From IMG/VR virus record IMGVR_UViG_3300009550_000008: a stretch of 64,000 nucleotides of DNA, one strand, 5' to 3'. Below, in pieces: positions 1-64,000 of the stretch. Position 1 is the first letter of the stretch. Each line of letters opens with the position of its first letter. Made by a program: the position numbers and the translations under genes. The notes beneath the pieces were generated by a model, which saw only the letters and a program-made list of their open reading frames with translations, was not told where the DNA came from and searched no databases. The stretch comes from a virus.

Positions 1-5
1 GAGTA

Positions 6-416
6 ATGGCTATAAGTAAATCATTCAAACTTGCAGAACTCATTCGTCATATTGAATATGATTCTACGGATGATGTAATCAAAACAAGTAAAGCAACTCA
101 AGATAAACATAAAAAGAGGGATTCTACAAGTAAATCCTCTACCGATGTATTCAATCTTGATACCTTTGCTCATGCAGACTTTAGAGCTGCAAGATACATC
201 GTTGCAATGTCTAAAGGAACAGATTTCCATTCAACGGAAATTATGTTGATTCATGACGGAACCACAGTATCATTAACTCAATATGGAGTATTGCAAGATG
301 CAACACTTGCGTCATTTGATGCAGACATCAATGGTGACAATGTTAGACTTAGGTGTACACCAGCTTCGGCAACTACGACTACAATCAAGTATGACCGTAC
401 ACTGGTAGAAGCGTAA
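6..416 (+). CDS. Putative virion structural protein (tail/baseplate-associated)
   Basis: C-terminal FRAARYIV...HSTEIMLIHDG...QYG segment resembles a domain common in structural proteins of marine T4-like phages; lies in the fibre region. Confidence 0.5.
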   Translation: MAISKSFKLAELIRHIEYDSTDDVIKTSKATQDKHKKRDSTSKSSTDVFNLDTFAHADFRAARYIVAMSKGTDFHSTEIMLIHDGTTVSLTQYGVLQDATLASFDADINGDNVRLRCTPASATTTTIKYDRTLVEA

Positions 417-435
417 GAGAACTTCAAACCAAATT

Positions 436-463
436 AAATGGGGCTTCGGCCCCATTTTCTTTT
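436..463 (+). terminator. Rho-independent terminator
   Basis: AAATGGGGC-TTCG-GCCCCATTT stem with UUCG loop, followed by a T-rich tract. Confidence 0.85.
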
Positions 464-534
464 ACGGGTAAGGCTCTCTATCTCATAAATAATCCTATAC
501 ATTCTAAACAATTCAATTTAGGACACGGAGAAAC

Positions 535-768
535 ATGGCAGATACAAAAAATTTCAGAGTAGAGTATGGAATTAACAGTGGTTCTAGTGAGGTGATAAAT
601 TCAAGTGGGAAAGTTGTAGCATCTGCTCTATCAGCAGTCGATTCAGACGATATAACAGAAGGTTCGTCTAATACATTTTTTACTACAACCCGTGTGAATA
701 ACCACCTAGCAGATTCCGGCTCGGCAAAGACAATTAATAATGCTACAATAGATGGAGGAACATTCTAG
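535..768 (+). CDS. Short fibre-related protein, partial paralog of the downstream fibre
   Basis: GGAG RBS and upstream CATAAATA (484-491); shares NFxxxxG...EVIxSSG and D-x-TEGSSN motifs with ORF 768-2603. Confidence 0.6.
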   Translation: MADTKNFRVEYGINSGSSEVINSSGKVVASALSAVDSDDITEGSSNTFFTTTRVNNHLADSGSAKTINNATIDGGTF

Positions 769-2603
769 TGGCTGCACAGAATTTTAAAATCAAGAACGGT
801 TTAACGGTAGGTACTACTGAGGTAATCGATAGTTCAGGTGACTTAACAAATGCAGCTTTCGGAACTGCAGCTAAAGAAGCAATTGACGATCAAGTAAATA
901 CTCTAATGACCGCAGGTTCGGGAATCTCATTATCATATGACGATTCAGCAGGAACATTAACAGTAACAAGAGATGCAGAAACAGGAGACATCGAAGGAGT
1001 TGTTGCTGGTACAAACTTAAGTGGTGGTGGTACATCGGGTACAGTCACATTAAATGTAGAACAAGAATTAACAAACTCAACTGCACCATTTTACCATAAG
1101 ATCGCTGTAACAGTAGTCAGTGATAGTGGTAACAAATATGCAATGGATGGAAATACATCAGGTGGTGTTGCAGTTAGATTGATGCCTAATATAGTTTATA
1201 GGTTCGATCAATCAGACAGTTCAAACGCAAACCATCCATTAAGATTTTCAGAAACCTCAGATGGAACCCACAACAGTGGTGCAGAAATATCTGATGGTTA
1301 TCTAATATACAACAAAGTCGGAACACCAGGCTCGGCGGGTGCATACACAGAAGTTGCATTTGACCAAGAAAGTAACGACACATTATACACATACTGTTCT
1401 GCTCATAGTGGTATGGGACAGACAGTCACATTAGGATATGCTGGTGACATTACAGGTGTTACTGCTGGAGACGGTCTCTCAGGTGGTGGTGCAACTGGAG
1501 CGGTATCACTTGCATTAGATTTAAGTGAACTAACAGCTGCAGTGGTAGACCCTGCGACAGATAGTATTGCAATTATCGATGCTGGAGATGGTTCATCTAA
1601 GAAAGAAGCAATCGCAGACCTTGCAACGATGCAAGCTGGAGACGGACTAAGTGCATCAAGTGGTGCATTTGCAGTAAATGTAGATGACAGTTCAATAGAA
1701 ACAAGTTCAGATTCACTACAAGTCAAAGCTGGTGGTGTTACAAATGCAATGTTAGCAGGTTCAATTGCAAACGCAAAACTTGCAAATTCAGCAATCACAA
1801 TTGCTGGAAGTTCTACTTCATTAGGTGGAACAGTTCTTGCAGACACCGATGCATTAACAGAAGGTTCTTCAAACTTATATCTAACAAACGAAAGAATTGA
1901 TGACAGAGTTGCAACTCTTATAGTTGGTGGTTCAAATATCACATCAACTTATGATGATGCAGCGGGTACATTAACACTTGCTGGTTCGGCTGCATATGCA
2001 GACTCAGATGCAAGAGGTGCTATATCGGTAACCGATTCAGGTGGAGATGGTTCACTTGCATACAATAACTCTACAGGTGTTATCACATATACAGGCCCAA
2101 GTGCATCAGAAGTAAGAGCTCATATAACTGCTGGAACTGGTATTGGAATCAGTTCAGGTGAAGTAAGTATCGGGCAAGCAGTTGCAACATCAAGTAATGT
2201 TCAATTTGCAAACTTAACACTTTCAGGTGACTTAACAGTAAACGGAACAACCACAACAGTAGCAACAACAAACTCAGTGATTTCAGATGCATTGATAGAA
2301 CTAGGAAATGGAACATCAGGTTCACCAGCAAATGATGCTGGTCTAGTTATCGAAAGAGGAAGTTCAGACAATGTATTCATTGGTTGGGACGAAAGTGCAG
2401 ATGCAATCACATTCGGTACAGGTTCATTTACAGGTGCAGATACAGGTAACTTGACAATAACACCTAGTGCAGTAAACACAGGTGCAGTGACAATTACAAA
2501 CGCAACAAATAGTGGTGGTACAGCAAGGAATGTTTATCAGTCTACATCAGCTCCGACAGGTGGAGATGGTGCAGTTGGTGATTTATGGATTTTATACTCT
2601 TAA
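768..2603 (+). CDS. Tail fibre-like virion protein
   Basis: G/S/T/A-rich; repeated GDIxGVxAGxxLSGGG motifs; YRFDQSDSSN...HPLRFS...HSGMG module; C-terminal APTGGDGAVGDLW motif; GTG start overlaps the upstream stop. Confidence 0.75.
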   Translation: MAAQNFKIKNGLTVGTTEVIDSSGDLTNAAFGTAAKEAIDDQVNTLMTAGSGISLSYDDSAGTLTVTRDAETGDIEGVVAGTNLSGGGTSGTVTLNVEQELTNSTAPFYHKIAVTVVSDSGNKYAMDGNTSGGVAVRLMPNIVYRFDQSDSSNANHPLRFSETSDGTHNSGAEISDGYLIYNKVGTPGSAGAYTEVAFDQESNDTLYTYCSAHSGMGQTVTLGYAGDITGVTAGDGLSGGGATGAVSLALDLSELTAAVVDPATDSIAIIDAGDGSSKKEAIADLATMQAGDGLSASSGAFAVNVDDSSIETSSDSLQVKAGGVTNAMLAGSIANAKLANSAITIAGSSTSLGGTVLADTDALTEGSSNLYLTNERIDDRVATLIVGGSNITSTYDDAAGTLTLAGSAAYADSDARGAISVTDSGGDGSLAYNNSTGVITYTGPSASEVRAHITAGTGIGISSGEVSIGQAVATSSNVQFANLTLSGDLTVNGTTTTVATTNSVISDALIELGNGTSGSPANDAGLVIERGSSDNVFIGWDESADAITFGTGSFTGADTGNLTITPSAVNTGAVTITNATNSGGTARNVYQSTSAPTGGDGAVGDLWILYS

Positions 2604-2623
2604 TTGAGTCAGTGAGGAATTAA

Positions 2624-3910
2624 ATGGCGTCAGGTAACCAAAAGGTTAAAACCCCTTCGGGTTGGAATGCAACTCAAGGTGCTTGGGTAAAAACAGGCAG
2701 TACAACTTGGAAGGCAGTAGATCAGATTTATATCAAGACTCCCGATGGATGGAATGATGCATCAGGACAAGAAGCAACGCAAATTCCTTACCCTTACATT
2801 GCAACTGGACAGGAACCAAACATTAGACAAACTATTGTTACATATCCTTACATTGCAAATGCTCAAGAACCAAATATAAGACAAACCATTGTTCCCTATC
2901 CTTACATTGCAAATGGTCAGGAACCTAACCAAAGATCAAGACAGATTTCTTATACCTATCAGGCACAGGCAAGACAACCAGTTGAATATCAATATGGTTC
3001 ACCGTTTACATACGATCATAGAGAACCTAATACATATTCAATAAGATCACCGTTTACATACGATCATAGGTCACCGTTCACTTATAATAGAACTGGAAGA
3101 AGTCCTTTTACTTATAATAGAACTGGTAGGACACCATTTACATATCAGGCACCAGCAAGACAACCTGCGACATATCAGGCTCCTGCTCGACAACCTTTTA
3201 TTGCAAATGCAAGACAACCGAATACATATCAAGCACCAGCAAGACAACCATTTATTGCAAGTGCAAGACAACCAGCAACATATCAAGCACCTGCGAGACA
3301 ACCGTTCATTGCATCTGCGAGACAACCTGCGACTTATCAAGCACCAGCAAGACAACCGTTCATTGCAAGTGCAAGAAACCCGTTCACTTATCAAGCAAGA
3401 ACACCAGTGTTTATACCAGGCGGTGGTGGTGGTTGCTTCAGTTCCGATATGCTTATTCTTATGGGTGATAATAGACTTATGCCTATCAGTGAAGTTCAAG
3501 CTGGAGACTTTGTATTATCATTTAACTTTGAAACTAACTTACTAGAATCTAGAGAAGTTGGTGCAATGATGGAACCAAGAGAAGATATACAACTATATAA
3601 TGTTAAACTTTCAAATGGTAACCACATTGAAATATCAGGTGGTCACCCAGTATCTACATCAAGAGGATGGAGATATATTAATGAGGATGCATGGAAAGTC
3701 GAAGTTGAAGCTGGAATTGCAGACTTCGAATGTGCAGAGGGTGAATTTGAAGTGGGTGACGAACTATTCTATTTCGGAGAACAAGAAGTGGTCGTTGAAA
3801 GTATAACTAAACAAGAAGAACTACAAACTACTTACAACATTGTATTAGTAGAAGGTAATGAAAACTATTTTGTGAATGGTGTTCTAGTTCATAACGGAGA
3901 GAAGAAGTAA
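2624..3910 (+). CDS. Repeat-rich fibre/adhesin-like protein A with C-terminal Hint (intein-like) domain
   Basis: Trp-rich N-terminus, 23 Pro-delimited 8/10-aa units, Gly5 linker, then a CF...SGGH...YFVNGVLVHN Hint domain; GAGG RBS. Confidence 0.8.
   Translation: MASGNQKVKTPSGWNATQGAWVKTGSTTWKAVDQIYIKTPDGWNDASGQEATQIPYPYIATGQEPNIRQTIVTYPYIANAQEPNIRQTIVPYPYIANGQEPNQRSRQISYTYQAQARQPVEYQYGSPFTYDHREPNTYSIRSPFTYDHRSPFTYNRTGRSPFTYNRTGRTPFTYQAPARQPATYQAPARQPFIANARQPNTYQAPARQPFIASARQPATYQAPARQPFIASARQPATYQAPARQPFIASARNPFTYQARTPVFIPGGGGGCFSSDMLILMGDNRLMPISEVQAGDFVLSFNFETNLLESREVGAMMEPREDIQLYNVKLSNGNHIEISGGHPVSTSRGWRYINEDAWKVEVEAGIADFECAEGEFEVGDELFYFGEQEVVVESITKQEELQTTYNIVLVEGNENYFVNGVLVHNGEKK
2786..3403 (+). 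repeat. Coding tandem array: 23 units of 8 or 10 aa (206 aa)
   Basis: Units such as PYPYIANAQE, PNIRQTIV, PFTYDHRS, PFTYNRTGRS, PATYQAPARQ, PFIASARQ. Confidence 0.9.
3434..3895 (+). other. Hint/BIL-type autoprocessing domain (154 aa, no homing endonuclease)
   Basis: Cys1 (TGC at 3434), block B SxxH, block F YNI...NYFVNG, terminal His-Asn followed by Gly-Glu-Lys-Lys-stop. Confidence 0.85.
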
Positions 3911-21614: not shown

Positions 21615-22919
21615 ATGTTTTTATCAGAAAACTTACAAGAGAAGTGGGAGCCAATTCTAGAGCACTCCGATCTACCAAAGATCGAAGACAACTACAAGAA
21701 AGCTGTCACTGCAGTAATACTCGAAAACCAAGAGAAAGCACTAAACGAAGATAGAGCTGCTCTTGAGGAAGCTGCACCTTTAAACTCTACTGGTAGCGGA
21801 ATCTCCAACTGGGATCCAATTTTGATCTCATTAGTGAGACGAGCTATGCCAAATCTCGTTGCATACGACATTTGCGGTGTTCAACCAATGACAGGCCCTA
21901 CAGGTCTTATCTTTGCTATGAAAGCAAGATACAATGACTACCCAACTGAAACTAGACTCAACAATAGTGAAGCACTATTCGGTGAAGCTAGATCAGACTA
22001 CTCAGGTAGTGCAGACCCTACAGCAGGCCCAGTGGGTTCAGACCCAATCGGTGACCCATTCGATACTTCTTCACCTTCTTATGCATCAACTACTGGTGCT
22101 GGAATGGCAACTGCATCTGCAGAAAGCCTAGGTGATGCAGCGGGTAACCATTTTGCACAGATGTCTTTCACAATTGAGAAAGCAACTGTTACTGCAAAGT
22201 CAAGAGCACTCAAAGCAGAGTACACTTTAGAATTAGCACAAGACCTCAAAGCAATCCACGGTCTTGATGCAGAATCAGAACTTGCAAATATTTTGTCAAG
22301 TGAGATTCTTGCTGAAATCAACAGAGAAGTTGTCAGAAATGTCAACCTTCAAGCCAAAACTGGTGCAGCTGACACAGCTAGTGCTGGTACATTCAACTTA
22401 GATGTTGATGCAAACGGTAGATGGTCTGTTGAGAAATTCAAAGGTCTATTGTTCCAAATCGAAAGAGAAGCAAACACAATAGCACAAGAAACAAGAAGAG
22501 GAAAAGGTAACTTTATCCTTTGTTCTAGTGATGTTGCATCTGCTCTTTCAATGGCTGGTGTATTGGATTACACACCTGCGTTAAACACTGACATCAATGT
22601 TGATGATACTGGTAATACTTTTGCTGGTGTTCTTAACGGAAGAGTTAAAGTGTACATCGACCCATATGCTGGTGTTGATTACATGACTGTCGGTTACAGA
22701 GGGTCTAACCCTTATGACGCTGGTATGTTCTATTGCCCATATGTTCCACTTCAAATGGTGAGAGCAGTTGGCGAGAATACTTTCCAACCAAAAATCGGAT
22801 TCAAAACTAGATACGGAATGGTATCTAACCCATTCGTAGGTTCTACACCTTCTGATGGTCTTGCATCTGCTGGAACAAACTTCTACTACAGAAAAATGGC
22901 AGTGTCCAACATTCTGTAA
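21615..22919 (+). CDS. gp23: Major capsid protein
   Basis: LVRRAMPNL, GVQPMTGPTGLIFAM, KSRALKAEYTLELAQDLKAIHGLDAE, FQPKIGFKTRYG. Confidence 0.98.
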   Translation: MFLSENLQEKWEPILEHSDLPKIEDNYKKAVTAVILENQEKALNEDRAALEEAAPLNSTGSGISNWDPILISLVRRAMPNLVAYDICGVQPMTGPTGLIFAMKARYNDYPTETRLNNSEALFGEARSDYSGSADPTAGPVGSDPIGDPFDTSSPSYASTTGAGMATASAESLGDAAGNHFAQMSFTIEKATVTAKSRALKAEYTLELAQDLKAIHGLDAESELANILSSEILAEINREVVRNVNLQAKTGAADTASAGTFNLDVDANGRWSVEKFKGLLFQIEREANTIAQETRRGKGNFILCSSDVASALSMAGVLDYTPALNTDINVDDTGNTFAGVLNGRVKVYIDPYAGVDYMTVGYRGSNPYDAGMFYCPYVPLQMVRAVGENTFQPKIGFKTRYGMVSNPFVGSTPSDGLASAGTNFYYRKMAVSNIL

Positions 22920-32937: not shown

Positions 32938-33552
32938 ATGTATCAATTAGTTGAAGAAGCAATGAAGGTTCTCAGAGAACCAACCACAGATTTCGATTTT
33001 GAAAATCCACCCGAAGACCCAAAAGAGATCGAGAAAAACATGGCAGAAGCCATGGAACGATTTGGTGGTCTTGGTCTATCTGCAAACCAGTTAGGTTTAC
33101 CATATCGAGTGTTCGTCATGAGAACTGCAGATAGTGGTACTAGAGCATTCTTTAATCCTGAGATTACAAAGTTATCCAAAGAAACAGATTTAATGAAAGA
33201 AGGGTGCCTTTCTTTCCCCGATATATACTTAATGATAAAGAGACCTTCTGCAATTGAATTAGAATACTCAGATGCAGATGGAGAAAGACATACACTACAA
33301 TTAGAAGGAATGGGTTCTAGATGTGTTCAACACGAACTAGATCATTTAAATGGAATTATATTCCTTCAAAGAGCCTCTAAGTTAAAATTGGAAAGGGCTA
33401 TCAAGTCTAGACCTAAAGAGAGGAGAAAGAGATTAGATTATGAAAAAAGAATGGAAATTGCTAGACAACTCCAAAGTCTACAATCACAAAGTGATTCCGA
33501 TTCTGACGAAGGAAGAGTGCCAGAACCTGATTCAATGGCACAACAGTCATAG
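32938..33552 (+). CDS. def: Peptide deformylase
   Basis: GLGLSANQ, EGCLS, QHELDHL. Confidence 0.95.
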   Translation: MYQLVEEAMKVLREPTTDFDFENPPEDPKEIEKNMAEAMERFGGLGLSANQLGLPYRVFVMRTADSGTRAFFNPEITKLSKETDLMKEGCLSFPDIYLMIKRPSAIELEYSDADGERHTLQLEGMGSRCVQHELDHLNGIIFLQRASKLKLERAIKSRPKERRKRLDYEKRMEIARQLQSLQSQSDSDSDEGRVPEPDSMAQQS

Positions 33553-34216: not shown

Positions 34217-34293
34217 CTCCGTGTAGCTCAACTGGATAGAGCAACGGCCTTCTAAGCCGTAGGTTAGAGGTTCGAGTCCTCTCACGGAGGCCA
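34217..34293 (+). tRNA. tRNA-Arg (anticodon UCU)
   Basis: Acceptor stem CTCCGTG/CACGGAG, D arm GCTC/GAGC, anticodon arm ACGGC-CT-TCT-AA-GCCGT, T loop GTTCGAG, encoded CCA. Confidence 0.96.
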
Positions 34294-37268: not shown

Positions 37269-37524
37269 AGTAGACCCAGCATATTATGAAAGAATACCAA
37301 CAACAGACTACAGTAAATTCGCTGATGCAATTAATGATGTTGGCCCTGCACCTTGCACTTTTCATAATTGTGAACGATACGATCACTGTAAGGAAAAGAA
37401 GGTTGAATGTTTTGCATTCAGAGCATGGGTTAATAATGGTGAGAAATATCTCACTCAAAAGAATGCAAAAGGTGAGGTTAAATGCTTAAACAAAATGGGG
37501 AGATTACTTGAACCAGTTAAATAA
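37255..37524 (+). CDS. Small Cys-rich protein (possible Fe-S or Zn binding)
   Basis: PCxxxxCxxxxxCxxxxxxC cluster; GGAG RBS. Confidence 0.6.
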   Translation: MPHLKVDPAYYERIPTTDYSKFADAINDVGPAPCTFHNCERYDHCKEKKVECFAFRAWVNNGEKYLTQKNAKGEVKCLNKMGRLLEPVK

Positions 37525-38864: not shown

Positions 38865-39813
38865 GAAACCAGTCAATCTATTGAAAGGGGAACAATCACA
38901 GTTCCCCGTTCAGGTTGTGCCTGGCATGAGAGTTCTCAGATATGACTATGTCAGATTAGTTGACATCAATGCAACCAATCAGAACTGGGGTAGAATCAGT
39001 GGTGTTACAACAGCTGGTAGGGATGGAATCAGGAGAATGATTCAGGATGGAACATACTTACCTCAACACTTTGAACCACCAGTGATAGATCAGGATGGTA
39101 ATCTTATCGCTGGAAAGCACAGGTTCGATGCACATGACGCTGAAGGTGAAGAATACATGTGGGTTGCAGTTTGTGAATTCGATGATGATGATGCAAGAAA
39201 TACATATGCAAATGATGAGAATATGAGAAACACCTTCAAGACTATGCAGACGCCTGAAGATTTCATTTTTGCACATGCACAAATTGTTAAGAGAGGAGAC
39301 AAAGTAGCTAAAACTAAGAATGCAGTTAGTAATTACATCAAGAGAAATTATCCACAACTCCCTATGAATTATCCAAGTAGGTCAAAACTTGCCGAAGAGA
39401 TATTGATTACAGCTGGAGTTGATTTTGTACCGATTGAAATTATGACTGATGAGAAAATCATTTCTGAGTATTATGAAGAGTATGGAATCGATATTGTCGA
39501 AGACCCTTCTTGCATTTTAAAGAAATTAACTGGTGCAAAGGATTTAAAAAGGTCAGATAGATGGGCAAGACTTATGAGAGATTTGACTGATGGTATTTCA
39601 ACTGGTGTTAACTATACAGTTATCACTACATTTACTGGTGCAAACTCTGAGTCAATTCCTGAACTCAGGAAAACTTGTTTAGAGTTCTATGATGATATGA
39701 TCGAGAATGCAAAGAAGTTAATCACTGGACAAGCAAGAAAGAAATTAGGAAGTGTTAGCTTTATTTTCACTAAGCAACTTCCCGAAGATGAGGTGTTCAA
39801 TGAGATTAACTGA
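38854..39813 (+). CDS. ParB/Srx-like N-terminal domain protein
   Basis: EPPVIDQDGNLIAGKHRFDA; start reassigned from 38716 to avoid a long overlap with cobS. Confidence 0.65.
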   Translation: MTTKKPVNLLKGEQSQFPVQVVPGMRVLRYDYVRLVDINATNQNWGRISGVTTAGRDGIRRMIQDGTYLPQHFEPPVIDQDGNLIAGKHRFDAHDAEGEEYMWVAVCEFDDDDARNTYANDENMRNTFKTMQTPEDFIFAHAQIVKRGDKVAKTKNAVSNYIKRNYPQLPMNYPSRSKLAEEILITAGVDFVPIEIMTDEKIISEYYEEYGIDIVEDPSCILKKLTGAKDLKRSDRWARLMRDLTDGISTGVNYTVITTFTGANSESIPELRKTCLEFYDDMIENAKKLITGQARKKLGSVSFIFTKQLPEDEVFNEIN

Positions 39814-48777: not shown

Positions 48778-48941
48778 TGAAACAGTGGTTATTTAATAAG
48801 ATGGCTCCGTATGCCATCCAATTCAGAGAGTGGTCTAAAGGAAAGACTTGGATACAAATTCCATTATGGATACTTATATTATGGATGTTAGGATTTGCTA
48901 ATCCTATTTGGTGTGTTTATCCAGTCTGCTGGATTCAGTAA
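48777..48941 (+). CDS. Small Trp-rich membrane protein (54 aa)
   Basis: MKQWLF...WCVYPVCWIQ; TAATG-coupled at both ends. Confidence 0.6.
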   Translation: MKQWLFNKMAPYAIQFREWSKGKTWIQIPLWILILWMLGFANPIWCVYPVCWIQ

Positions 48942-50779
48942 TGTATTCTTGGAAGACTGTATTAGTGACCATCGGGTTACTATTTGGACTTAAAGTTTGG
49001 AATCCCTATCTAATAGAAAACATCACATGGTCGTGGTTCGACTTCTTACATCAATCACATGAGGTAGAACAAGTAGAAGATATAGTTCTAGTTGATATCG
49101 ATGAGAAGTCATTAGAGAAGTATGGTCAGTATCCATGGCCAAGAAACATTTATGCAGATATCATGTTGGAATCACATTATTCCAATACACATGTATATAC
49201 TCAATTATTCAAAGAACCCGATAGATTTGACGGAGATGCTAAATTTGCAGAGGGTTTAGTTAATCGCTTATCGATACTTTCAGCAGCTCCAACAATTCAG
49301 AAAGATACTGGTACTGCACCGTTTGTGAGGACATCGGTCTTCGGCGGTGGCGAGATTAAAGATCATATTTGGAACTTTTCAGGCATTGCATCACCCGTTG
49401 AGATGCTAATGGCAAATTCATATGGTGTTGGCGTCACGGTTGCAACTCCGTCAATATCAGGTACACCAAACTTTGACGGGACGATTCGTTCTGCACCACT
49501 TATAGTATCTGCAAACGATCAGATATATCCATCCGTTGCACTGGAAGTGCTTCGTGCATTTGGAGATCATAAAAATTATCAGACAAGGGTTACACCCGAA
49601 GTTGGAATCGAGTGGATTCGTATGGGTCGATCTACACCCATTGAAACAACACCTACTGCAGATATTCAGATTGCATACTGGTATGACTTTGAGAGAATAT
49701 CTGCAGCTGATTTATCAGAGTCAGACTTACAAGGTAAGATACTTGTATGGGGTCTAACTGCAGAAGGACTTAATAATCCATCTTCAACCCCAGTGGGTGT
49801 AATGTATCCCCATCAAGTTCAAGCCTCAGTCCTCCAGTCCGTCTTGCAAGAAGTTCGAATACAACAATCCTACTATCTTGAATTTTTGTCTCTCGTTCTT
49901 CTTCTGTCAGTCCTTCTAGGAATACTGGGAGTGGTTTACACACTTCCCACAGCCTTTGCGGGGATAGTGAGTTTAACTTTCGTTGGATTTCAGGTGGGTG
50001 GGGGTTTCTATTGGTGGTCTTCATCTCTCGTTCTTTTCGATACTTTCTACTCATCGATTGCCTCCATGATTGTGTTTGGACACGCATCCTTCAACAAATA
50101 CTATAAGACCTATCAACTCAAAGAACAAATTAAGATGCAGTTCCAAAAATATTTATCTCCTGACATGGTTGACGAACTGGCTAAAAACCCTGAAAAATTG
50201 AGACTTGGTGGAGAAAGAAAGGAGATGACATTCATGTTTATGGACATATGTGGGTTCACTCCGATCAGTGAAGCTTACAAGAATAATGATGACCCCGAGG
50301 GATTAGTAGACTTGATAAACAAATTCCTTGATGTTCAAACCAAGATAATAATAAATAATGGAGGAACCATAGACAAATACATGGGCGATTGCATCATGGC
50401 ATTTTGGAATGCTCCATTGGATTGCGAAGAACATGCAGAACTTGCTGTTAAGTCTGCAGAAGAAGTATTAATTGCAACCAAGGAACTCAATGAAGAACTT
50501 AAACCTCTTAATCTGCCTCCTATTAATGTCGGTATCGGCATCAGCACAGGAGAATGTATTGTCGGAAACATGGGGTCAGAAGTTAGATTTGACTATTCCG
50601 TCATTGGAGACGCCGTCAACTTGGGTGCTAGACTCGAAGGACAAACGAGAAATTATGATGGGGTGGACTTGTTGTTATCGGAAAGAACTTATCAACTATG
50701 TCCAAACAGAGCATTTACTCAAGTCGACAGAATTAATGTCAAGGGCAAATCCGAGAAGGTTACAATATACACTTGTTGA
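48941..50779 (+). CDS. CHASE2-domain class III adenylate cyclase
   Basis: IVLVDIDEKSL...GQYPWPR (CHASE2), TM helices, FMDICGFT, DKYMGDCIMAFW, DYSVIGDAVNLGARLEG; start at MYSWK via TAATG coupling. Confidence 0.92.
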   Translation: MYSWKTVLVTIGLLFGLKVWNPYLIENITWSWFDFLHQSHEVEQVEDIVLVDIDEKSLEKYGQYPWPRNIYADIMLESHYSNTHVYTQLFKEPDRFDGDAKFAEGLVNRLSILSAAPTIQKDTGTAPFVRTSVFGGGEIKDHIWNFSGIASPVEMLMANSYGVGVTVATPSISGTPNFDGTIRSAPLIVSANDQIYPSVALEVLRAFGDHKNYQTRVTPEVGIEWIRMGRSTPIETTPTADIQIAYWYDFERISAADLSESDLQGKILVWGLTAEGLNNPSSTPVGVMYPHQVQASVLQSVLQEVRIQQSYYLEFLSLVLLLSVLLGILGVVYTLPTAFAGIVSLTFVGFQVGGGFYWWSSSLVLFDTFYSSIASMIVFGHASFNKYYKTYQLKEQIKMQFQKYLSPDMVDELAKNPEKLRLGGERKEMTFMFMDICGFTPISEAYKNNDDPEGLVDLINKFLDVQTKIIINNGGTIDKYMGDCIMAFWNAPLDCEEHAELAVKSAEEVLIATKELNEELKPLNLPPINVGIGISTGECIVGNMGSEVRFDYSVIGDAVNLGARLEGQTRNYDGVDLLLSERTYQLCPNRAFTQVDRINVKGKSEKVTIYTC

Positions 50780-51184: not shown

Positions 51185-51595
51185 ATGACGCATTTAGATA
51201 TATTTGGTCAATTCAGACCGTTCGCAATTGGATTTGATAGATACTTCGAAGACCTCGATAGACTATCTAATCTTTCACAACCCAACTACCCACCTTACAA
51301 TGTTGTAAAGGTTGACGATGAAAATTTCATTGTTGAACTTGCAGTTGCTGGTTTTGGTAAAAAAGATGTTTCTGTTACTAAAGAGAAGAATCTTCTTATC
51401 ATTGAGGGTAAAGTAGAAGACGCCGAAAAAGAATTCGTTCACAAAGGTTTGGCTTCTAGAGCATTCAAGAGATCATGGACTCTTGCAGACAATGTTGAAA
51501 TTGATTCTGCAGAGTTGAAAGACGGCATCTTGTCTGTTAGTTTAGTGAAGGTTATTCCCGAAGAGGATAAACCAATCTCTATAAAAATCTCTTAA
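51185..51595 (+). CDS. hsp20: Small heat-shock protein Hsp20 (IbpA-like)
   Basis: IGFD, NYPPYNV, ELAVAGF, HKGLASRAFKRSW, DGILSV. Confidence 0.95.
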   Translation: MTHLDIFGQFRPFAIGFDRYFEDLDRLSNLSQPNYPPYNVVKVDDENFIVELAVAGFGKKDVSVTKEKNLLIIEGKVEDAEKEFVHKGLASRAFKRSWTLADNVEIDSAELKDGILSVSLVKVIPEEDKPISIKIS

Positions 51596-51661: not shown

Positions 51662-52183
51662 ATGTTATCAGTAGGAGAACAGTTCCCAAGTTTTACACTT
51701 AAGGGAATTAATGAAAACAACGAATTTGTTGATGTAGAAGTTAATGAAGGATATACGCCTTTGAAAAAAGACTGGTCTGTAGTTTACTTTTACCCGAAAG
51801 ACTTTACATTCATATGTCCAACAGAAATTGCTGGAATGGATATCTTAGTCGATCATGCAAATGTTGTTGGTATCAGTGGTGATAACGAGTTCTGTAAATT
51901 AGCATGGAAACAAGATAATGAGTTGATAGGTTCTATCAGACATTCACTTGCAGCTGATTGTGGACTTGGACTATCACATCAACTAGGTATCGTAGATGAT
52001 GAAAATGGTGTTTGTTATCGTGCAACATTCATTTTCGACAAAGACAGAGTCATTCAACATGCATCAATCAATGCATTAGACACTGGACGAAATGCACAGG
52101 AAGTTCTAAGAACTTTACAAGGATTACAAGCTGGTGGACTCACTGGTTGTGCATGGAACGAAGGTGATGAGTTTGTTGGTTAA
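51662..52183 (+). CDS. ahpC: Peroxiredoxin (AhpC-type)
   Basis: FYPKDFTFICPTE, RATFI, GRNAQEVLR. Confidence 0.92.
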   Translation: MLSVGEQFPSFTLKGINENNEFVDVEVNEGYTPLKKDWSVVYFYPKDFTFICPTEIAGMDILVDHANVVGISGDNEFCKLAWKQDNELIGSIRHSLAADCGLGLSHQLGIVDDENGVCYRATFIFDKDRVIQHASINALDTGRNAQEVLRTLQGLQAGGLTGCAWNEGDEFVG

Positions 52184-52233: not shown

Positions 52234-53487
52234 ATGTACTTTCAATATACTTTAGACGATTTAAAACAAAATTCTTCTCAGAAGAAATTCTCATATATTA
52301 CATTCTTTGCAGGCGGTGGTGGTTCATCGTGTGGATATAAACTCGCAGGTGGTGATGTTCGATACATGAATGAGTTCCAACAGATTCATGTTGACACTTA
52401 TCTTAAGAACTTCCCTGATACTGTACACGAATGTAAAGATATCAAACAAGTGACTGGTAAAGGCATTATGGAACTTACTGGTCTCAAACCATATGAACTT
52501 GATCTACTGGATGGGTCACCACCTTGTCCACCTTTCTCTATGGCTGGAACCAAGAGAGAAGGATGGGAACAAGAGAAGGTTGCATATGGAATGAAACAAC
52601 AAAACATCGAAGACCTTACATGGGAACAAATTAGAATTGCTGGTGAACTCAAACCCAAAGTAATTGTATGTGAGAATGTAAAAGGTCTCTCTATGGATTA
52701 TGCAAGAGATCATCTTAACAAGATGGTCACAGATTTTGAAGCACTAGGTTATTCAGTTGTATGGAAGATCATGAAAGGACATGAACATGGAGTACCTCAA
52801 AAGAGAGAAAGAGTATTCATGGTTGGTGTTCGTGATGATGTTCTAGAAGCAATTGGTAGACCTTGGATGACTCTAGGAAGTATCTTCCCTGAACCATCAG
52901 ATCAATATGCAACGATCAGTCAAGCAATTGATGATCTTGAAGATGATGAAGAGAATATCGAAGATGCTAAATACTTAGAACAAGCTATGAAAGATTCATC
53001 AAAAGGTCATTGGGTTCATGGATTTGAAAAACATCCTGATGAAAAGTTTGCAAACTGTACACCATGTAAAGGTATTGATGGTGTTGCAGATAAAGAGAAT
53101 ATGTCCTATGTTTCTATTGGAGATCATATTGTAAAACCTTGGTTCCAAGAGAACATTAGATTAGGACACATACCAGCGGAAGACGAGAAACATTCTTATT
53201 ATATGTCTAGGATAGTTCCAAAACATTTACCAGCTCATTCATTGACTGAACAAGGATGTCAACCTAAATTTATGGGTGGTAATCATTTCCATTACAACGG
53301 TAAGAGAATTTATACACCAAGGGAAATGGTAAGACTTATGTCACTACCTAACGATTATCAAATGACTGGTGATTACAATGATAAGGGTGCAAGGATTGGA
53401 TTAATGGTTGCACCACTATGCTTGTATTATCTAGTTGAAGAAATCAAAAAACAGATATTAGAACCATGGAACACATTGCAAAAGTAG
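52234..53487 (+). CDS. DNA cytosine-C5 methyltransferase
   Basis: FAGGGG (I), GSPPC (IV), ENV (VI), QKRERVF (VIII), motifs IX/X. Confidence 0.95.
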   Translation: MYFQYTLDDLKQNSSQKKFSYITFFAGGGGSSCGYKLAGGDVRYMNEFQQIHVDTYLKNFPDTVHECKDIKQVTGKGIMELTGLKPYELDLLDGSPPCPPFSMAGTKREGWEQEKVAYGMKQQNIEDLTWEQIRIAGELKPKVIVCENVKGLSMDYARDHLNKMVTDFEALGYSVVWKIMKGHEHGVPQKRERVFMVGVRDDVLEAIGRPWMTLGSIFPEPSDQYATISQAIDDLEDDEENIEDAKYLEQAMKDSSKGHWVHGFEKHPDEKFANCTPCKGIDGVADKENMSYVSIGDHIVKPWFQENIRLGHIPAEDEKHSYYMSRIVPKHLPAHSLTEQGCQPKFMGGNHFHYNGKRIYTPREMVRLMSLPNDYQMTGDYNDKGARIGLMVAPLCLYYLVEEIKKQILEPWNTLQK

Positions 53488-54464
53488 ATCACGGTTTCAA
53501 AGAAACCTACGATAAGTGGAACGGAAAGTTCCTAGACAAATCATCATACGATGAAGTTATATCATCTATAGGAGTAGATGAGAAAGTAATTAAAGTAAGT
53601 AAACCAGTTGCATCTATTACAGGTGATATGGCTCCACTTGCATATATTGTTAAAGGTGAATACACTGGAGACAATTATCAGACTATTAAAGATACATTGT
53701 TTTCAATTGATGATGTCTCAACTATGAGAGCAAATGCATCAGGCCCAATCGATCATGAGGATATGAAAAAGAAAGGATTGATCGAAGGTGTACATTACAA
53801 ACTAAGAACACCTAACTCTTACTATCCACTTAAAAAGAATGGTAAGTTCAATCGTATTGCAGAAGCAAATGCAATTCATTCTGTATTGATAGGATATAAG
53901 AGAGGAAGATTTACAGGGATGATTAATCCTAGTGGTTGGATGAAGAAGAAATCTAATCAACAAAAGTGGGAAGTATTACAGAAGATTGCACCTCTTAACG
54001 AAGGTGCATTAAAGATCGCTGCTCCCGATGTGTGGCGTCAGCAAAGATCATTTGCAGACAATTATATTGAAAGTAAGTATCACATCGGGGGCGCACCTAT
54101 CACGGCTTTATCTGCAAACAGATATTCCAGTGAAGGTACTGCAAAAATGTCAGCACATCTAGATGGAAAAGATTTAGAGTTTGGATTGACAACAATGTGT
54201 GTTTTCAGGATTGGAGACTTCAAGGGTGCATATCTTTGTTTCCCTAGATACGGTCTTGCAATAGAAGCTGATGATGGTGATGTATTGATTGCAGATTCAA
54301 ATGAATTACATGGTGTTACACCTATCGAAGGAAATGGTGTGAGACTTTCATGTGTTGCATATTGTGATGAACATGTTGCAACAATGGGTATTGGTGGTAA
54401 ATCAGAAAACCCGATTGGCCCATCTAACAAAGATAAACATGGAAGTCTAGACGAGTTTTTTTAG
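53466..54464 (+). CDS. TET/JBP-family 5-methylpyrimidine dioxygenase
   Basis: HLDGKD, GAYLCFPRY...DGDVLIAD...HGVTPI...RLSCVAY; overlaps the C5-MTase gene. Confidence 0.85.
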   Translation: MEHIAKVDHGFKETYDKWNGKFLDKSSYDEVISSIGVDEKVIKVSKPVASITGDMAPLAYIVKGEYTGDNYQTIKDTLFSIDDVSTMRANASGPIDHEDMKKKGLIEGVHYKLRTPNSYYPLKKNGKFNRIAEANAIHSVLIGYKRGRFTGMINPSGWMKKKSNQQKWEVLQKIAPLNEGALKIAAPDVWRQQRSFADNYIESKYHIGGAPITALSANRYSSEGTAKMSAHLDGKDLEFGLTTMCVFRIGDFKGAYLCFPRYGLAIEADDGDVLIADSNELHGVTPIEGNGVRLSCVAYCDEHVATMGIGGKSENPIGPSNKDKHGSLDEFF

Positions 54465-55001
54465 ATGATATACTTAATCGGTGGAGTACCATGTTCAGGT
54501 AAATCAACCCTGATGAGAGGTCTTATCTCTCGTTTAGAAGAACCTAAACTTGTAGAACCTATGCCTCTATTCAAATGTCAGGAACATGGTGACATTCTAG
54601 TATGTGGTCAGTATCCCGAAGGAGAAACATTCGGTGGTACAGATAGATTATCATATGGTGCAATACCACACTTTAGAGAATTTTGTGATGGTATCAGTAT
54701 TGGATATAAACATACTATTATAGAAGGTGATCGATTCTTTAGAGCAGAAGATATAGAATGGGTACTAGACAATCATGAATCAGAAGTTTACATTCTTACA
54801 GTTGACTCAGATGAAGAGAAACGAAGACACGAAGAACGACAAGATACTCAAACAGAGAAATGGTTACAGGGTCGTAGAAGTCAGATAGATAACATTCAAA
54901 AGAATTTCAATCTTATGGGAAGGTTAAATGTGGTCAACAACAGAGACATTCAAACTTCCCTAAGAATAGCTGATGAAATCTACGGGAAAATTATTTCATG
55001 A
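54465..55001 (+). CDS. P-loop nucleotide kinase-like protein 1
   Basis: GVPCSGKST, GGTDRLS, IIEGDR. Confidence 0.8.
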   Translation: MIYLIGGVPCSGKSTLMRGLISRLEEPKLVEPMPLFKCQEHGDILVCGQYPEGETFGGTDRLSYGAIPHFREFCDGISIGYKHTIIEGDRFFRAEDIEWVLDNHESEVYILTVDSDEEKRRHEERQDTQTEKWLQGRRSQIDNIQKNFNLMGRLNVVNNRDIQTSLRIADEIYGKIIS

Positions 55002-55573
55002 TTGTTCTTGTTCTAGGTGCTTCATGCAGTGGTAAGTCAACGATGTTAAATAATCTTTGTGATAGATTACATACTCCAAAAGAAGATATTTTTGAACCTC
55101 TTCCATTTTGGAAATGTAGAGAATACGGAGACATATTAAATGTTGAATCATATCCAATTAAGTATCCACCAAATCAAGTGTTCAATGGAACAGAAGTAAT
55201 AACTGCAGAGAACACTATCTATGATGGTGACTCAGGAGTTTCAGAGATTCCAAAGTATCAAGACTTCTGTAGATGGGCCGATTACTCATATGTACATACA
55301 CTTATAGAATGTGATATGTACTGGAAAAGTCAAGAGATACAATGGGTATTAGATAACCATGATGCACAAGCTTTTCTTTTAACAGTTGATTCGGATGAAG
55401 AACTTAGAAGACATAATGAAAGACATAGTACACAATCTGAGGAAGAAAAACTATTGTGTAAATTGCAGATAAATAATATACAAAAGAACATTAATGAACT
55501 TAATGTGAGAGAAAACAATACCACTGAATCTTCATTAAAAATTGAAGACGAGATTTATGCCAAAGTTATTTAA
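54998..55573 (+). CDS. P-loop nucleotide kinase-like protein 2 (diverged paralog)
   Basis: GASCSGKST; shares WVLDNH and LTVDSDEExRRHxER with the upstream ORF. Confidence 0.75.
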   Translation: MIVLVLGASCSGKSTMLNNLCDRLHTPKEDIFEPLPFWKCREYGDILNVESYPIKYPPNQVFNGTEVITAENTIYDGDSGVSEIPKYQDFCRWADYSYVHTLIECDMYWKSQEIQWVLDNHDAQAFLLTVDSDEELRRHNERHSTQSEEEKLLCKLQINNIQKNINELNVRENNTTESSLKIEDEIYAKVI

Positions 55574-60187: not shown

Positions 60188-61246
60188 GTGAATATGTCAT
60201 TTTTAAAAGACTTAGTTAAAGCAACTGGAAACGAATATGCAAATATCGTATCCGATGGTGTTGCAGCTGGGGATGTAGACTCATTCGTTGATACGGGGAG
60301 TTATGTCTTCAATGCATTACTTAGTGGTTCACTACACGGTGGACTTCCAAAAAACAAAATCACTGCAATTGCTGGAGAATCTGCAACAGGTAAAACTTAT
60401 TTTGCCTTGGGAATGTGTAAACAATTCCTAGAAGATAATCCCGAAGCTGCAGTAATCTATTTCGAATCCGAATCTGCAATCAGTAAAGATATGATTGAGG
60501 ACAGAGGAATCGATTCTAAAAGAATTGTTATCGTGCCTGTAGTAACAGTTCAGGAATTCAGGAAACAGGCAATTTCTATATTAGACAAATATCTCGAAAC
60601 TGATGAATCAGAAAGACCACCTATGATGATGTGTCTTGATTCATTAGGAATGTTGTCTACTACTAAAGAGATCGAAGATACTGCAGAGGGTAAAGAAACC
60701 CGAGACATGACTCGAGCTCAAGTAGTTAAAGGTGCATTCAGAGTATTGACTCTAAAACTTGGTAGGGCAGGTGTCCCTATGATAGTGACTAACCACACTT
60801 ATGATGTGATTGGTTCCATGTTCCCACAAAAAGAAATGGGTGGTGGTAGTGGATTGAAGTATGCAGCTTCATCTATTATCTACTTGTCCAAGAAAAAAGA
60901 GAAGGAAGGAACCGAAGTTATTGGTAACATCATTCACTGTAAGAATGCAAAGTCAAGACTTACAGTTGAGAACAGAATAGTGGATGTTAGATTAAACTAT
61001 GAAACAGGTTTAGATAGATACTATGGATTACTTGATCTTGCACTTGCAAGTGGTATCTTCAAAAAGTCTTCAACAAGAGTTGAGCTACCAACAGGTAAAA
61101 CCGAATTTGCAAAAACAATAAACAACAACCCTGAGAAATTCTTCACTGATGAAGTGATGGAAAGATTAGAAGAAGTTGTAAGAGATTATTTTAAATATGG
61201 AAACGAGAATAGAACAGACGATACTCAAGAATCTGATTCAGAATGA
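60188..61246 (+). CDS. uvsX: RecA-like recombinase UvsX
   Basis: [38 protein letters not shown]; start may be 60194. Confidence 0.95.
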
Positions 61247-62576
61247 AGAGTTTACACGGAAGTGTATTCCTTTTCTAAGGCCTGAGTATTTCACAGATAC
61301 ATCTGAAAGAACAATCTATGAATTTACATATGATTACTTTCAGAAGTATACTAAACCACCCACAATAGAAGCACTTCTCATAAATCTTGAGAACAGCACT
61401 TCCCTTAATGAGAAGACTCTCAAGGACACAAAATCTATTGTAAACGGTTTCGGTAGTGAAGAATCCCCACAGGAATGGCTGGTCGATGAGACAGAGCAGT
61501 GGTGCAAAGATAGAGCAATCTATATTGCAGTAATGGATTCAATCGAAGTGATCGATAAGAAGTCACAACGATCTACTGGTGAGATACCAGAGCTCTTAAA
61601 GGATGCACTCTCCGTGTCCTTTGATACACATATAGGACATGATGTATTAGAAGACGCGGACGATAGATTTGAATTCTATCATACGGAAGAAGAGAAGATT
61701 CCATTTGATCTAGAATACTTCAACAAAATCACAAAGGGTGGATTACCCAATAAGACACTGAACATTTGTCTTGCAGGCACAGGTGTTGGTAAGTCATTGT
61801 TCATGTGTCATATGGGTTCTGCAGCTTTGATGATGGGTAAGAATGTATTGTATATCACACTAGAAATGAGTGAAGAAAGAATTGCAGAGAGAATCGATGC
61901 AAACACTTTGAACATTCCTATGAAAGAACTTCCTGATATATCTAAGAAGATGTATGATAAGAAGATCGAGAAACTCAAGAACAAAACAAAAGGTAAACTA
62001 ATTGTAAAAGAGTATCCAACTGCAGCTGCACATGTCGGACATTTCAGACATCTATTGCAAGAGTTAGATATCAAGAAAGACTTCAAACCCGATATCATCT
62101 TTATCGATTATCTAAACATATGTTCATCACATAGAATCAGGCCTGGTTCAGGTGCAAACTCTTACACTTTGGTCAAGAGTATTGCAGAAGAACTTAGAGG
62201 ACTTGCAGTCGAATATGATGTACCTATTATGTCTGCAACTCAGACTACAAGATCAGGATACGGTTCGACAGATATTGGACTTGAAGATACATCAGAATCC
62301 TTTGGATTACCAGCGACAGCTGATATGATGTTTGCATTAATCACATCTGATGAACTCGAAGAACTAGATCAGTTGGTTGTAAAACAGTTGAAGAACAGAT
62401 ACAATGACCCAACTATATTCAAGAGATTTGTTATCGGTGTAGATAGATCAAGAATGAAACTATATGATTGTGAACAAGAAGCACAAGAAGAACTCTTAGA
62501 CTCAGGGGATGACTATGATGATAGTGTTCCAGTCGCCGACAGAGGAAGAGACAGATATTCGGACTTTAAGATATGA
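61197..62576 (+). CDS. gp41: Replicative helicase
   Basis: [46 protein letters not shown]. Confidence 0.96.
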
Positions 62577-62716
62577 TAAAAAAGAAAAATATACAAAACA
62601 GAAGACAAAGAGCCCTAGATACTTTAATGAAAGTAAAGGAACCTAATGATCGTCAAAAGAAGGAGATTGCAATTCTGCAACAGCATCTAAAGCTGCAAAA
62701 CACTATTGACTCATAA
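62573..62716 (+). CDS. Small basic hypothetical protein (47 aa)
   Basis: ATGA overlap with the gp41 stop; open for 47 codons. Confidence 0.45.
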   Translation: MIKKKNIQNRRQRALDTLMKVKEPNDRQKKEIAILQQHLKLQNTIDS

Positions 62717-62739
62717 GGTATCATGGGTTATAATGGTAG

Positions 62740-62931
62740 ATGGTACAAAAAATGGTTGGGAAAACATTGAAATCTGATGAAGTAATTGAGAGTATTACCT
62801 ATAAAATACAACTCAAAAAAGACCTTAGACAGGCCAAATCAAAGGGTGATCTAAGAAAGGCTGATCTTATCCAACTAAAAATAAATCAAATAGAAGAAAA
62901 ACTTAAGTCGTCACCACTCTCCAAAACCTAA
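62740..62931 (+). CDS. Hypothetical protein
   Basis: Preceded by TTGACT-N17-TATAAT. Confidence 0.55.
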   Translation: MVQKMVGKTLKSDEVIESITYKIQLKKDLRQAKSKGDLRKADLIQLKINQIEEKLKSSPLSKT

Positions 62932-62967
62932 ATAGTTGGGTATAACTTTTTTTAGGAGAACATTTAC

Positions 62968-63420
62968 ATGGCATGGGCAGACGATATAATTTTATTAAAT
63001 CTTAGAATTGCTAGACAGCAAAGATATGTCGACTACTTAGAGGGTGCTAACTCTAATGTTTTTGGGCCTAGAGGTGCAAATGCAGACCCAATGAATCCAG
63101 CACATACAAACGGATGTGACCCTGATGATTCAACTGCAGCTTCTCATAGATGGACAGGAACAGGTGGTGCAAACGCATACTTTGCTTGGTGGAGATCACA
63201 ATTTTCATCCGCGGATGAGAACACAGCTGGTATAGAAGGTGCAGTATATGATGCATGGAAACACTGGAACGACACACTTTCACAGGACATTGCAAATGAG
63301 ACAGGATATGCAGACACACTTGCAGGGCATAAGACAACTATTACCAATCTCACAACCAAGAGAGACCTTTTACAAGCAAATATCGACAACGGTGTTGAGC
63401 AGAAAACTGCACCCGAATAA
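62968..63420 (+). CDS. Hypothetical late protein
   Basis: AGGAG RBS and upstream CTAAATA. Confidence 0.6.
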   Translation: MAWADDIILLNLRIARQQRYVDYLEGANSNVFGPRGANADPMNPAHTNGCDPDDSTAASHRWTGTGGANAYFAWWRSQFSSADENTAGIEGAVYDAWKHWNDTLSQDIANETGYADTLAGHKTTITNLTTKRDLLQANIDNGVEQKTAPE

Positions 63421-63472
63421 TAAAAAAGCATAAATAGTAGTATTACACAGGATTATGTGATATACTACTATT

Positions 63473-64000
63473 ATGGGTGCAAAGAACTTACATTTAGAAC
63501 ATTTAGAAGACGAGATCATCAATCAGGGTATTGATGGTGGTCGTGGTGCAATTAACTTTCTTCAAGGTCTAAGAGACATGTTGAAAGGTAATGCAAAGTC
63601 AGGGGTCAAGATGACCGTTAAATGGGACGGAGCTCCAGCGATATGGGCAGGGCCTCATCCCGAGACAGGACAATTCTTTGTTGCAAAGAAATCCCTCTTT
63701 ACCAAAGCACAACTTCACTACACCTCAGAACAACAAATCAAAGATGCACCTGAACTCTCAGGTGATCTACAAACCAAATTCCTAGAAGCATTCAAACACC
63801 TTTCAAAGTTAAACTTTAGTAAGATATTACAGGGTGACTTGATGTTTACATCAGGTGATAAGAAGATGTCTACCATTGATGGTGAGTCATTCATAACATT
63901 CGGGCCAAACACAATTACATATGCAGTTCAAACATCGAGTGAACTGGGTAAACAAATAGCTGGTGCAAAATTAGGAATCGTATTCCATACCACATATACA
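63473..64000 (+). CDS. Conserved T4-like phage protein (DUF6267-like), truncated by the window edge
   Basis: MGAKNLHLEHLED...TVKWDGAPA...QGDLMF; ligase-like KxDG motif; no stop before the window end. Confidence 0.7.
   Translation, partial: MGAKNLHLEHLEDEIINQGIDGGRGAINFLQGLRDMLKGNAKSGVKMTVKWDGAPAIWAGPHPETGQFFVAKKSLFTKAQLHYTSEQQIKDAPELSGDLQTKFLEAFKHLSKLNFSKILQGDLMFTSGDKKMSTIDGESFITFGPNTITYAVQTSSELGKQIAGAKLGIVFHTTYT

Follow-up and report, generated by a model that had tools for sequence, protein, structure and literature searches.

Restriction-type words persist almost only beside GC[C/G/T] cytosines in a marine T4-like phage with a C5-methyltransferase and TET cassette

The modification cassette of the window

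The stretch of DNA analyzed here, called the window throughout, is 64 kb long (64,000 nucleotides, IMG/VR virus record IMGVR_UViG_3300009550_000008), with 37% G+C and every gene on the + strand, and comes from a marine T4-like myovirus that has not been cultured. It carries a predicted cytosine-modification cassette, in which a C5-cytosine DNA methyltransferase (C5-MT, or MT) adjoins a TET/JBP-type dioxygenase (TET), and its sequence bears a footprint: short restriction-type words have been purged from it, and the copies that remain contain or touch, with a single exception, a cytosine that is preceded by G (GpC) and followed by C, G or T (hereafter GC[C/G/T], or GCB). A first-pass annotation, made by a model from the letters of the sequence, had noticed part of this pattern and read it as the trace of the phage's own cytosine modification.

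The best nucleotide match of the window is its capsid gene, 76% identical to that of Methylophilales phage Melnitz; none of the annotated phages searched by nucleotide match is near-identical to it, and marine metagenomes from several studies contain DNA that is. Its DNA polymerase shares about 48% protein identity with cyanophage polymerases. The cassette and the two genes before it are as follows (aa, amino acids; 5hmC, 5-hydroxymethylcytosine):

51185..51595, + strand: HSP20 small heat-shock protein (Pfam PF00011, E 1.5e-17), upstream marker of the clade I/A neighborhood
51662..52183, + strand: AhpC/TSA peroxiredoxin, or redoxin (Pfam PF00578, E 6.8e-22)
52234..53487, + strand: C5-MT, 417 aa (Pfam PF00145, E 8.7e-51, full-length match)
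53466..54464, + strand: TET/JBP-type 5-methylpyrimidine dioxygenase, 332 aa (Pfam PF12851, 49.5 bits for a cut-off of 34.9)
54465..55001, + strand: P-loop nucleotide-kinase-like protein 1 (Ploopntkinase3, E 1.4e-4, below cut-off; PHROG kinase matches), presumed 5hmC kinase
54998..55573, + strand: P-loop kinase-like protein 2, about 40% identical to its paralogue kinase 1 (PHROG kinase matches)

The MT and TET genes are parallel and overlap by 22 nt. The MT has the FxGxG, SPPC (catalytic; DGSPPCPPFS) and ENV motifs; it is 54% identical, gap included, to the MT of Melnitz (BLASTP), with a 21-aa insert in the target-recognition region, and its best solved relative is 8yf3 (SpCmoX, E 8e-70). In the TET, the H-L-D motif, the distal His and the Arg are conserved in an alignment of 10 homologues; a sequence search of the PDB with this protein gave no match. 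Kinase 1 is conserved behind TET in relatives, and no tandem second kinase was seen in those examined, which have one kinase, often after a 330-390-aa gene absent from the window. Indeed, what follows TET varies among relatives: the 330-390-aa gene and a kinase, an epimerase and a TET-associated glycosyltransferase (TAGT), TAGT alone, or nothing. In the window, the kinases are followed by a small open reading frame (ORF), a lysozyme and the DNA polymerase, and the cassette has no recognizable downstream transferase. Three metatranscriptome contigs (X15-X17) cover short pieces of hsp20, redoxin, TET, kinases and polymerase; as DNA carry-over is possible, expression is not claimed, and uncovered parts carry no weight either. 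Just upstream of the hsp20-redoxin-modification block, positions 48908-50779 encode a 623-aa protein that combines a CHASE2 sensor domain with the catalytic domain of an adenylate/guanylate cyclase.

Purged words and the exemption around GpC

Words were counted against a null model in which synonymous codons are swapped among positions of the same amino acid, which keeps both the proteins and the codon usage fixed (81 genes, 19,654 codons, 200-300 shuffles). Counts are given below as observed/expected and refer to the window unless another sequence is named. A word was scored as overlapping GpC when it contained, on one strand or the other, a cytosine preceded by G. A second record, G001, is 97-98% identical to the window and adds 27.7 kb upstream; counts over 91.7 kb (about 92 kb) rest on the sequence extended in this way.

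Many words are missing outright or nearly so: ACGT (0/123), GGWCC (0/40.5, both strands), TGATCA (0/23), AGATCT (0/24), AGTACT (0/17), ACTAGT (0/12.6), GGATC (2/92 summed over strands, that is, one palindromic site counted on both), CCAGA (3/102), CCGG (4/46), CGWCG (1/42) and CTGAAG (10/49). For each main motif, the observed value was reached in 0 of 300 shuffles, and a maximal-order Markov expectation agrees with this picture. The loss of short words exceeds what proteins and codon usage account for, which is how restriction-site avoidance is recognized; the footprint is real and far beyond chance. The purged words would be targets of AvaII, EcoRII, HpaII, AlwI, MaeII, AcuI, BspMI, BclI, BglII and other enzymes. 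ACGT, CTGAAG, CGWCG, CCTGC, TGATCA, AGATCT, AGTACT, ACTAGT and GTGCAC had not been listed in the first-pass annotation.

What that annotation had counted by hand holds up in the full count. It had pointed to codon choice at pairs of amino acids where a target word is within reach, and indeed, in a window where 87% of glycine codons are GGT or GGA, the 29 Gly-Pro pairs use GGC (21) or GGG (8), leaving no GGWCC on either strand, and 17 of the 18 Pro-Gly pairs use GGC, although GGC makes up 6% of glycine codons. The single Pro-Gly exception, GCCTGGT (62141..62147, +), uses GGT and is rescued from its 5' side. Asp-Pro is written with GAC in 48 of 49 pairs, the lone GAT giving the only GGATC(C), at 21812. 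The three copies of CCAGA are the GCCAGA at 33520 and 45457 and an unflanked one at 61587, and TCTGG is absent. Expected numbers of GGWCC and of GpC-free CCNGG in a full count had been named as what would speak against the idea; GGWCC stands at 0/40.5 and GpC-free CCWGG at 0/27.9. As for the restriction types ascribed to the host, a GGNCC-type activity is indistinguishable from GGWCC, and a CCNGG-type one from CCWGG plus CCGG.

Words in which a GpC cytosine is impossible (ACGT, GGATC, GGWCC, TGATCA, AGATCT) are gone; GGSCC, which always contains GCC, stands at 34/10.2. The same split runs through words that have a GpC overlap in some copies only. CCWGG is found at 0/27.9 where no cytosine overlaps GpC and at 18/9.9 where one does, and the corresponding pairs are 0/32.8 and 4/12.9 for CCGG, 1/92 and 2/10.4 for CCAGA, 0/33.5 and 1/8.3 for CGWCG, and 1/34.8 and 9/15.2 for CTGAAG. 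Pooled, these five G-flankable motifs give 2/221 without GpC overlap and 34/57 with it.

Not every GpC serves, and it is the base 3' of the cytosine that decides. The lower strand of CCTGC always reads GCA; sites with this GCA only are purged (2/35.4), as against 41/61.7 for those that add a GC[C/G/T] step (CCTGCB or GCCTGC), and ACCTGCA is absent (0/18.8). Over 92 kb, CCTGC stands at 2/55.4 with A only, and at 16/21.3, 16/16.4 and 21/49.9 when a context with C, G or T, respectively, is added. GTGCAC, which has GCA on both strands, is found at 0/12.6 over the same length. As GCA-only CCTGC is purged and GTGCAC absent, the protective context is GC[C/G/T], and GCA gives no protection. The proposal that the phage modifies GpC cytosines thus survives in a narrower form: the adjacent C5-MT/TET pair and the dependence of survivors on GpC agree with it, but GC[C/G/T] is concerned and not every GpC. 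The window holds 1,407 such cytosines, 5.9% of all C, or one per 45 bp.

Distance matters too. Taking 12 purged words over 92 kb, copies with the nearest GC[C/G/T] cytosine inside stand at 107/171 and copies that it abuts at 6/17.9, as against 0/44 at 2 nt, 0/38 at 3 nt and 2/719 at 4 nt or more, the last two counts being both strands of the GGATCC at 21812. In other words, every survivor of the 12 motifs in 91.7 kb, except that GGATCC, has a GC[C/G/T] cytosine inside or abutting, which suggests that the effect of the mark extends to the neighboring base. The exception and the informative abutting cases are the following:

21812..21817, palindromic: GGATCC, on Leu-Asp-Pro (CTG GAT CCA), the sole purged-motif site without a GC[C/G/T] cytosine inside or abutting
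37345..37350, + strand: CCTGCA, with only a GCA-type GpC inside and an abutting GCC cytosine (ggC, then CCTGCA)
39254..39259, + strand: CTGAAG, without GpC overlap; GC precedes it, and the C of this GCC step abuts
61587..61591, + strand: CCAGA, without a 5' G; GCT follows directly, so that the modified cytosine would abut; most relatives have CCT or CCC here
63321..63326, - strand: TGCAGG (minus-strand CCTGCA), with only a GCA-type GpC inside; the minus-strand GCC cytosine abuts

The GGATCC at 21812 is present in G001 too, and GAC at its codon would create GGACC.

Proposed mechanism, relatives and rival explanations

Established in this analysis are the purging of words, its dependence on GpC and on the 3' base, its dependence on distance, the set of genes present and the behavior of relatives (below). 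We consider it likely that they reflect a two-part anti-restriction strategy, in which a mark on GC[C/G/T] cytosines, written by the MT-TET pair, is combined with the purging of the target words that it leaves uncovered. After replication, the clade I-type C5-MT would methylate GC[C/G/T] cytosines, some 6% of all C, on both strands; TET, encoded next to it, would oxidize the 5-methylcytosine to 5hmC; and the two P-loop kinases would probably phosphorylate the hydroxymethyl group, giving either the final mark or a handle for a further group. Such a mark would block nucleases at the sites that it overlaps or touches. Being sparse, it could not cover most nuclease targets, and synonymous change would have removed the remaining words, about 800 expected copies of the 12 purged motifs in 92 kb, those with a marked cytosine inside or abutting being exempt. 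Where the protein forces a site (CCNGG by Pro-Gly, GGNCC by Gly-Pro), a codon that is rare elsewhere but brings in a GC[C/G/T] step would have been chosen. The cutting enzymes would most likely be host restriction systems.

Relatives with the same pair serve as natural controls. The MT is found at 58-99% identity in 80 viral contigs, with TET adjoining it in every checked contig of at least 12 kb, and GGWCC and unflanked CCWGG are both at 0 in nearly all of these MT-TET relatives (L024 is an exception). They vary in the purging of ACGT, CCAGA, CTGAAG, CCTGC(A), GGATC, TGATCA and GATC. Where a word is unpurged, unflanked copies abound (CCAGA 47-72 unflanked vs 1-12 flanked; CTGAAG 15 vs 0-2; GCA-only CCTGC 11-15); where it is purged, the remaining copies are all GCB-flanked. 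In G007 (146 kb), for example, shuffles give 0/53 for unflanked and 49/12 for flanked CCWGG, and 1/68 and 12/26 for CTGAAG, and the pattern is similar in G010 (146 kb). Purged sets turn over fast among close relatives: ACGT has been purged from the window and from G007, but not from G010 or a further relative, G002. GATC, for its part, is at 0/402 in G007, 0/427 in G010 and 23/389 in Melnitz, and only mildly low in the window (167/236).

Melnitz, a cultured phage of an OM43 host, has the clade II layout, with its MT-TET pair downstream of the polymerase. The footprint is present (GGWCC 0/63; CCWGG 0/68 unflanked and 68/25 flanked; GCA-only CCTGC 2/87), its 68 CCWGG sites are all GCC-flanked and so are 15 CCGG sites, but GCG rescue fails in it (CCTGCG 2/24, CGCG 1/59), so that its rule reads GC[C/T]. 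In the clade I-type genomes, GCG does rescue, CCTGCG and CGCG standing at 16/16.4 and 12/16.7 in the window, 7/13 and 6/10 in G007, and 7/22 and 19/35.6 in G010. This is the very difference described in the passages of Burke et al. 2021 (PNAS, PMC8256090) on enzyme specificity, where MT43/88 and TET43/88 act on GpC[C/T/G] and not on GpCA, and clade II enzymes act on GpC[C/T]. As the GCG rule differs between Melnitz and the clade I-type genomes, the footprint reproduces the published clade difference, and this is the strongest argument for MT-TET as the writer.

Several points weigh against the two-part strategy as stated. Above all, the footprint is found in G002 (151 kb, about 83% complete), which has no PF00145 match and no TET homologue anywhere: GGWCC 0/83, GGSCC 55/15, CCWGG 0/71 unflanked vs 52/17 flanked, CCAGA 2/201 unflanked vs 15/24 flanked. 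Writers of the mark other than MT-TET are therefore possible. In the window itself, rescue falls short for CCGG, CCAGA and CGWCG, at 0.1-0.3 of the expectation, and GCAGCA/TGCTGC is purged (2/40, with 0 on the + strand, Ala-Ala never being GCA-GCA) despite its lower-strand GCT. The cassette-free contigs used for comparison, six in number, are only fragments of 12-37 kb. Finally, we infer from sequence the mark on this phage's DNA, its final chemistry and the blocking of nucleases, and the identity of the cutters as host restriction enzymes is deduced in turn; clade I membership of the window MT is likewise suggested by its neighborhood and by the insert relative to the Melnitz MT, rather than by an alignment to MT43 or MT88.

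Inherited inertia does not account for the G002 footprint, the divergence being too great, and the purged sets differ between genomes. Polymerase-anchored loci reveal a hot-spot in the slot that the cassette occupies, with hsp20/redoxin on one side and the small ORF, lysozyme and polymerase on the other, and every footprint genome examined has a DNA-modification gene there, be it MT-TET, TAGT or a 482-aa methylase of the N6_N4 family with a TSPPYF motif. This last protein (the SPPY methylase) fills the slot of many relatives (L140:7087-8535, which is G002; L095:7272-8720; about 20 other loci). SPPY-type motifs are typical of N4-cytosine methylases. A sequence search of the PDB with it gave no match. 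No C5-MT or TET was found in the SPPY-methylase relatives, nor any SPPY methylase in the MT-TET genomes. SPPY-methylase genomes keep GCC, and probably also GCT, rescue, and GCG gives no protection in G002 (CGCG 0/41; CCCG 1/20 with GCG vs 6/12 with GCC). The contrast between GACGCA and GACGCY had been considered as further evidence for a GCY rule in G002 and was rejected, as cassette-free relatives show it too.

The six cassette-free contigs, 109 kb pooled, hold no modifier in the slot and show no flank effect, with the reservation that a modifier may lie elsewhere in the genomes of which they are fragments: CCWGG stands at 30/45 unflanked and 9/14.5 flanked, CCGG at 9/29 and 1/15, GGWCC at 29/43, GGSCC at 3/14, and CCAGA is unpurged. 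The first-pass annotation had held that the same bias in relatives lacking the MT-TET cluster would count against it; the bias is indeed present in SPPY-methylase relatives, but is absent where the slot has no modifier, so the footprint tracks a cytosine modifier in the slot and not MT-TET alone. With these refinements, the interpretation of that annotation is supported.

Most simply, the slot would house cytosine modifiers that share one context and can replace one another. One may go further, tentatively, and see in the SPPY methylase a candidate GC[C/T]-specific N4-cytosine methyltransferase of a new kind; the slot would swap in only modifiers that write GC[C/T(/G)], the genome being locked to one protective code by the co-adaptation of sparse modification and purging, and the footprint would be a general computational read-out of a modifier's motif (3' base, one-base reach) and of the restriction repertoire met by a lineage.

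Other occupants of the slot were recorded. A third variant is a 444-446-aa protein (L137:3501-4841, L152:5815-7149) with no family in PHROGs or Pfam, and TAGT lies at L145:5529-6386 and L152:7137-7955. The 423-aa protein of L145 is a GIY-YIG homing endonuclease and nothing more. Several relatives, cassette-free ones included, also have in the slot a 370-aa protein that weakly matches Druantia DruA (L146:3228-4358, L123:7462-8583, L137:1917-3029).

An improbable alternative is that the GC[C/G/T] mark is real but written by another shared system, MT-TET serving, for example, packaging or regulation. G002 lends support to such a writer, and so do L137, L145 and L152, whose slots have neither MT-TET nor SPPY methylase and whose sequences nevertheless bear the footprint. 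Against it stand the presence of a DNA-modification gene in the same slot of every footprint genome examined and the shift of the 3'-base rule with MT clade as published, GCG protecting in clade I-type genomes and neither in Melnitz nor in G002.

The cutters may also be nucleases with which the phage itself degrades host DNA, as known from T4 or chloroviruses, the genome shielding itself against its own weapons. Melnitz purges at least 10 words and infects a genome-streamlined OM43 methylotroph, and such a host is expected to carry few restriction systems. But at least 12 words would need many nucleases, none of which was recognized in the annotated parts, and the purged set varies among close relatives in the way that shifting host-strain repertoires would produce; we regard this explanation as decidedly improbable.

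There is little to be said for an account without any modification, in which host enzymes have flank preferences, cutting poorly beside G/C, or longer true recognition words. It is true that the contrast between GGWCC and GGSCC needs no modification, a cutter of GGWCC and not of GGSCC being an AvaII-type enzyme, and that GACGCA, and not GACGCY, is depleted in cassette-free relatives too. However, the same rule of a G before or a C after would be needed independently for CCWGG, CCGG, CCAGA, CTGAAG, CCTGC, CGWCG and TGATCA, and it would have to vary for GCG with the MT clade and vanish for CCWGG and CCGG in cassette-free relatives. Lastly, the pattern might be put down to codon usage, amino-acid composition, mutational bias or chance, given the GCA-rich alanine codons and poly-A/T depletion general to this phage clade, with or without cassette. 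This is rejected: with proteins and codon usage fixed, no shuffle comes near the observed values, and the rescue codons are rare ones.

Some compositional features were noted along the way. GCAGCA/TGCTGC is almost absent in nearly all relatives, among them G001, G002, G007, G010 and the cassette-free contigs, but stands at 70/99 in Melnitz. In the window, TGCA (617/385) and TTGCAA (86/35) are enriched against the shuffle, and there are fewer GCT (0.72), GCG (0.54) and GCC (0.84) steps than the shuffle predicts. Footprint genomes have about 10 TGCA per kb, cassette-free relatives about 5. GCA-rich alanine codons were considered as a second modification footprint and rejected, the GCA share of Ala being 0.57-0.75 in cassette-free relatives and 0.64-0.88 in the others. 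Runs of A/T are rarer than in the shuffle (AAAA/TTTT 966/1,413; AAAAAA/TTTTTT 71/168), a trait unrelated to the GpC rule. A single tRNA, tRNA-Arg(TCT), lies at 34217-34293, and AGA is the main arginine codon of the window (534 of 822).

Significance and comparison with known systems

With mark and purging combined, the modification of about 6% of cytosines would suffice to protect the entire genome: the mark covers the sites that the protein forces, and selection deletes the rest. The footprint provides evidence, drawn from sequence only, that marine phages are shielded from nucleases by their C5-MT/TET marks, a role that biochemical papers had only proposed for them, and it likewise recovers the 3'-base specificities by which the published MT clades differ. 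The approach could assign motifs to metagenomic modifiers and list the restriction pressures acting on uncultured phages. As Melnitz is cultured and shares the footprint, the idea is open to a direct bench test.

The window resembles virulent phages that avoid restriction sites in its selective loss of 4-6 bp Type II/IIS words through synonymous codons. It differs in that its avoidance is conditional: copies in the context of the mark are exempt, and even enriched where the protein forces the site, so that the modification motif, 3' base included, can be read off the survivors. The literature searched gave no description of site avoidance conditional on GpC, of the 3'-base and distance read-outs or of the interchangeable cassettes.

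M.CviPI of a chlorovirus is, like the window MT, a virus-encoded orphan C5-MT acting on GpC. It accepts any GpC, whereas the window footprint, in which GCA-only sites are purged like unprotected ones, points to a narrower specificity.

The CmoA/CmoX/CmoY pathway of Synechococcus phage S-B43 makes 5-carboxymethylcytosine (Yang et al. 2025, PMC12783734, PDB 8YF3); CmoX is specific for the GC motif, and its Arg350 binds the carboxymethyl group of Cx-SAM. The window MT shares the SPPC catalytic motif with CmoX, but has Leu at the Arg350 position (IGLMV vs VGRMV in the alignment to 8yf3) and adjoins TET and kinases instead of CmoA (the Cx-SAM synthase) and the CmoY ligase. A simple, crude pattern scan of the window ORFs for a class I S-adenosylmethionine-binding motif found none. 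The Leu at the Arg350 position and the TET neighbor indicate that the window enzyme is a methyltransferase of the same GC-reading lineage as CmoX, and not a carboxymethyltransferase.

The closest system is that of Burke et al. In the relevant passages of their paper, phage C5-MT/TET (5mYOX) pairs modify GpC cytosines, the clade I/A neighborhood has co-occurring heat-shock protein (HSP), redoxin, and P-loop kinase (P-LK) or glycosyltransferase (GT) genes, and clade I enzymes have an extra target-recognition insert; the authors propose a protective role, and text searches of the paper gave no restriction-site avoidance. The window departs from clade I/A in its two tandem kinases and in the lack of a recognizable transferase, and its enzymes are predicted ones. 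It agrees in its adjacent and parallel C5-MT and TET, its HSP, AhpC-type redoxin and P-loop kinase, and the lysozyme and polymerase nearby, and the context read from its footprint, GC[C/T/G] and not GCA, equals the specificity measured for MT43/88 and TET43/88. The gene cluster of the window is a new member of this described C5-MT/TET family.

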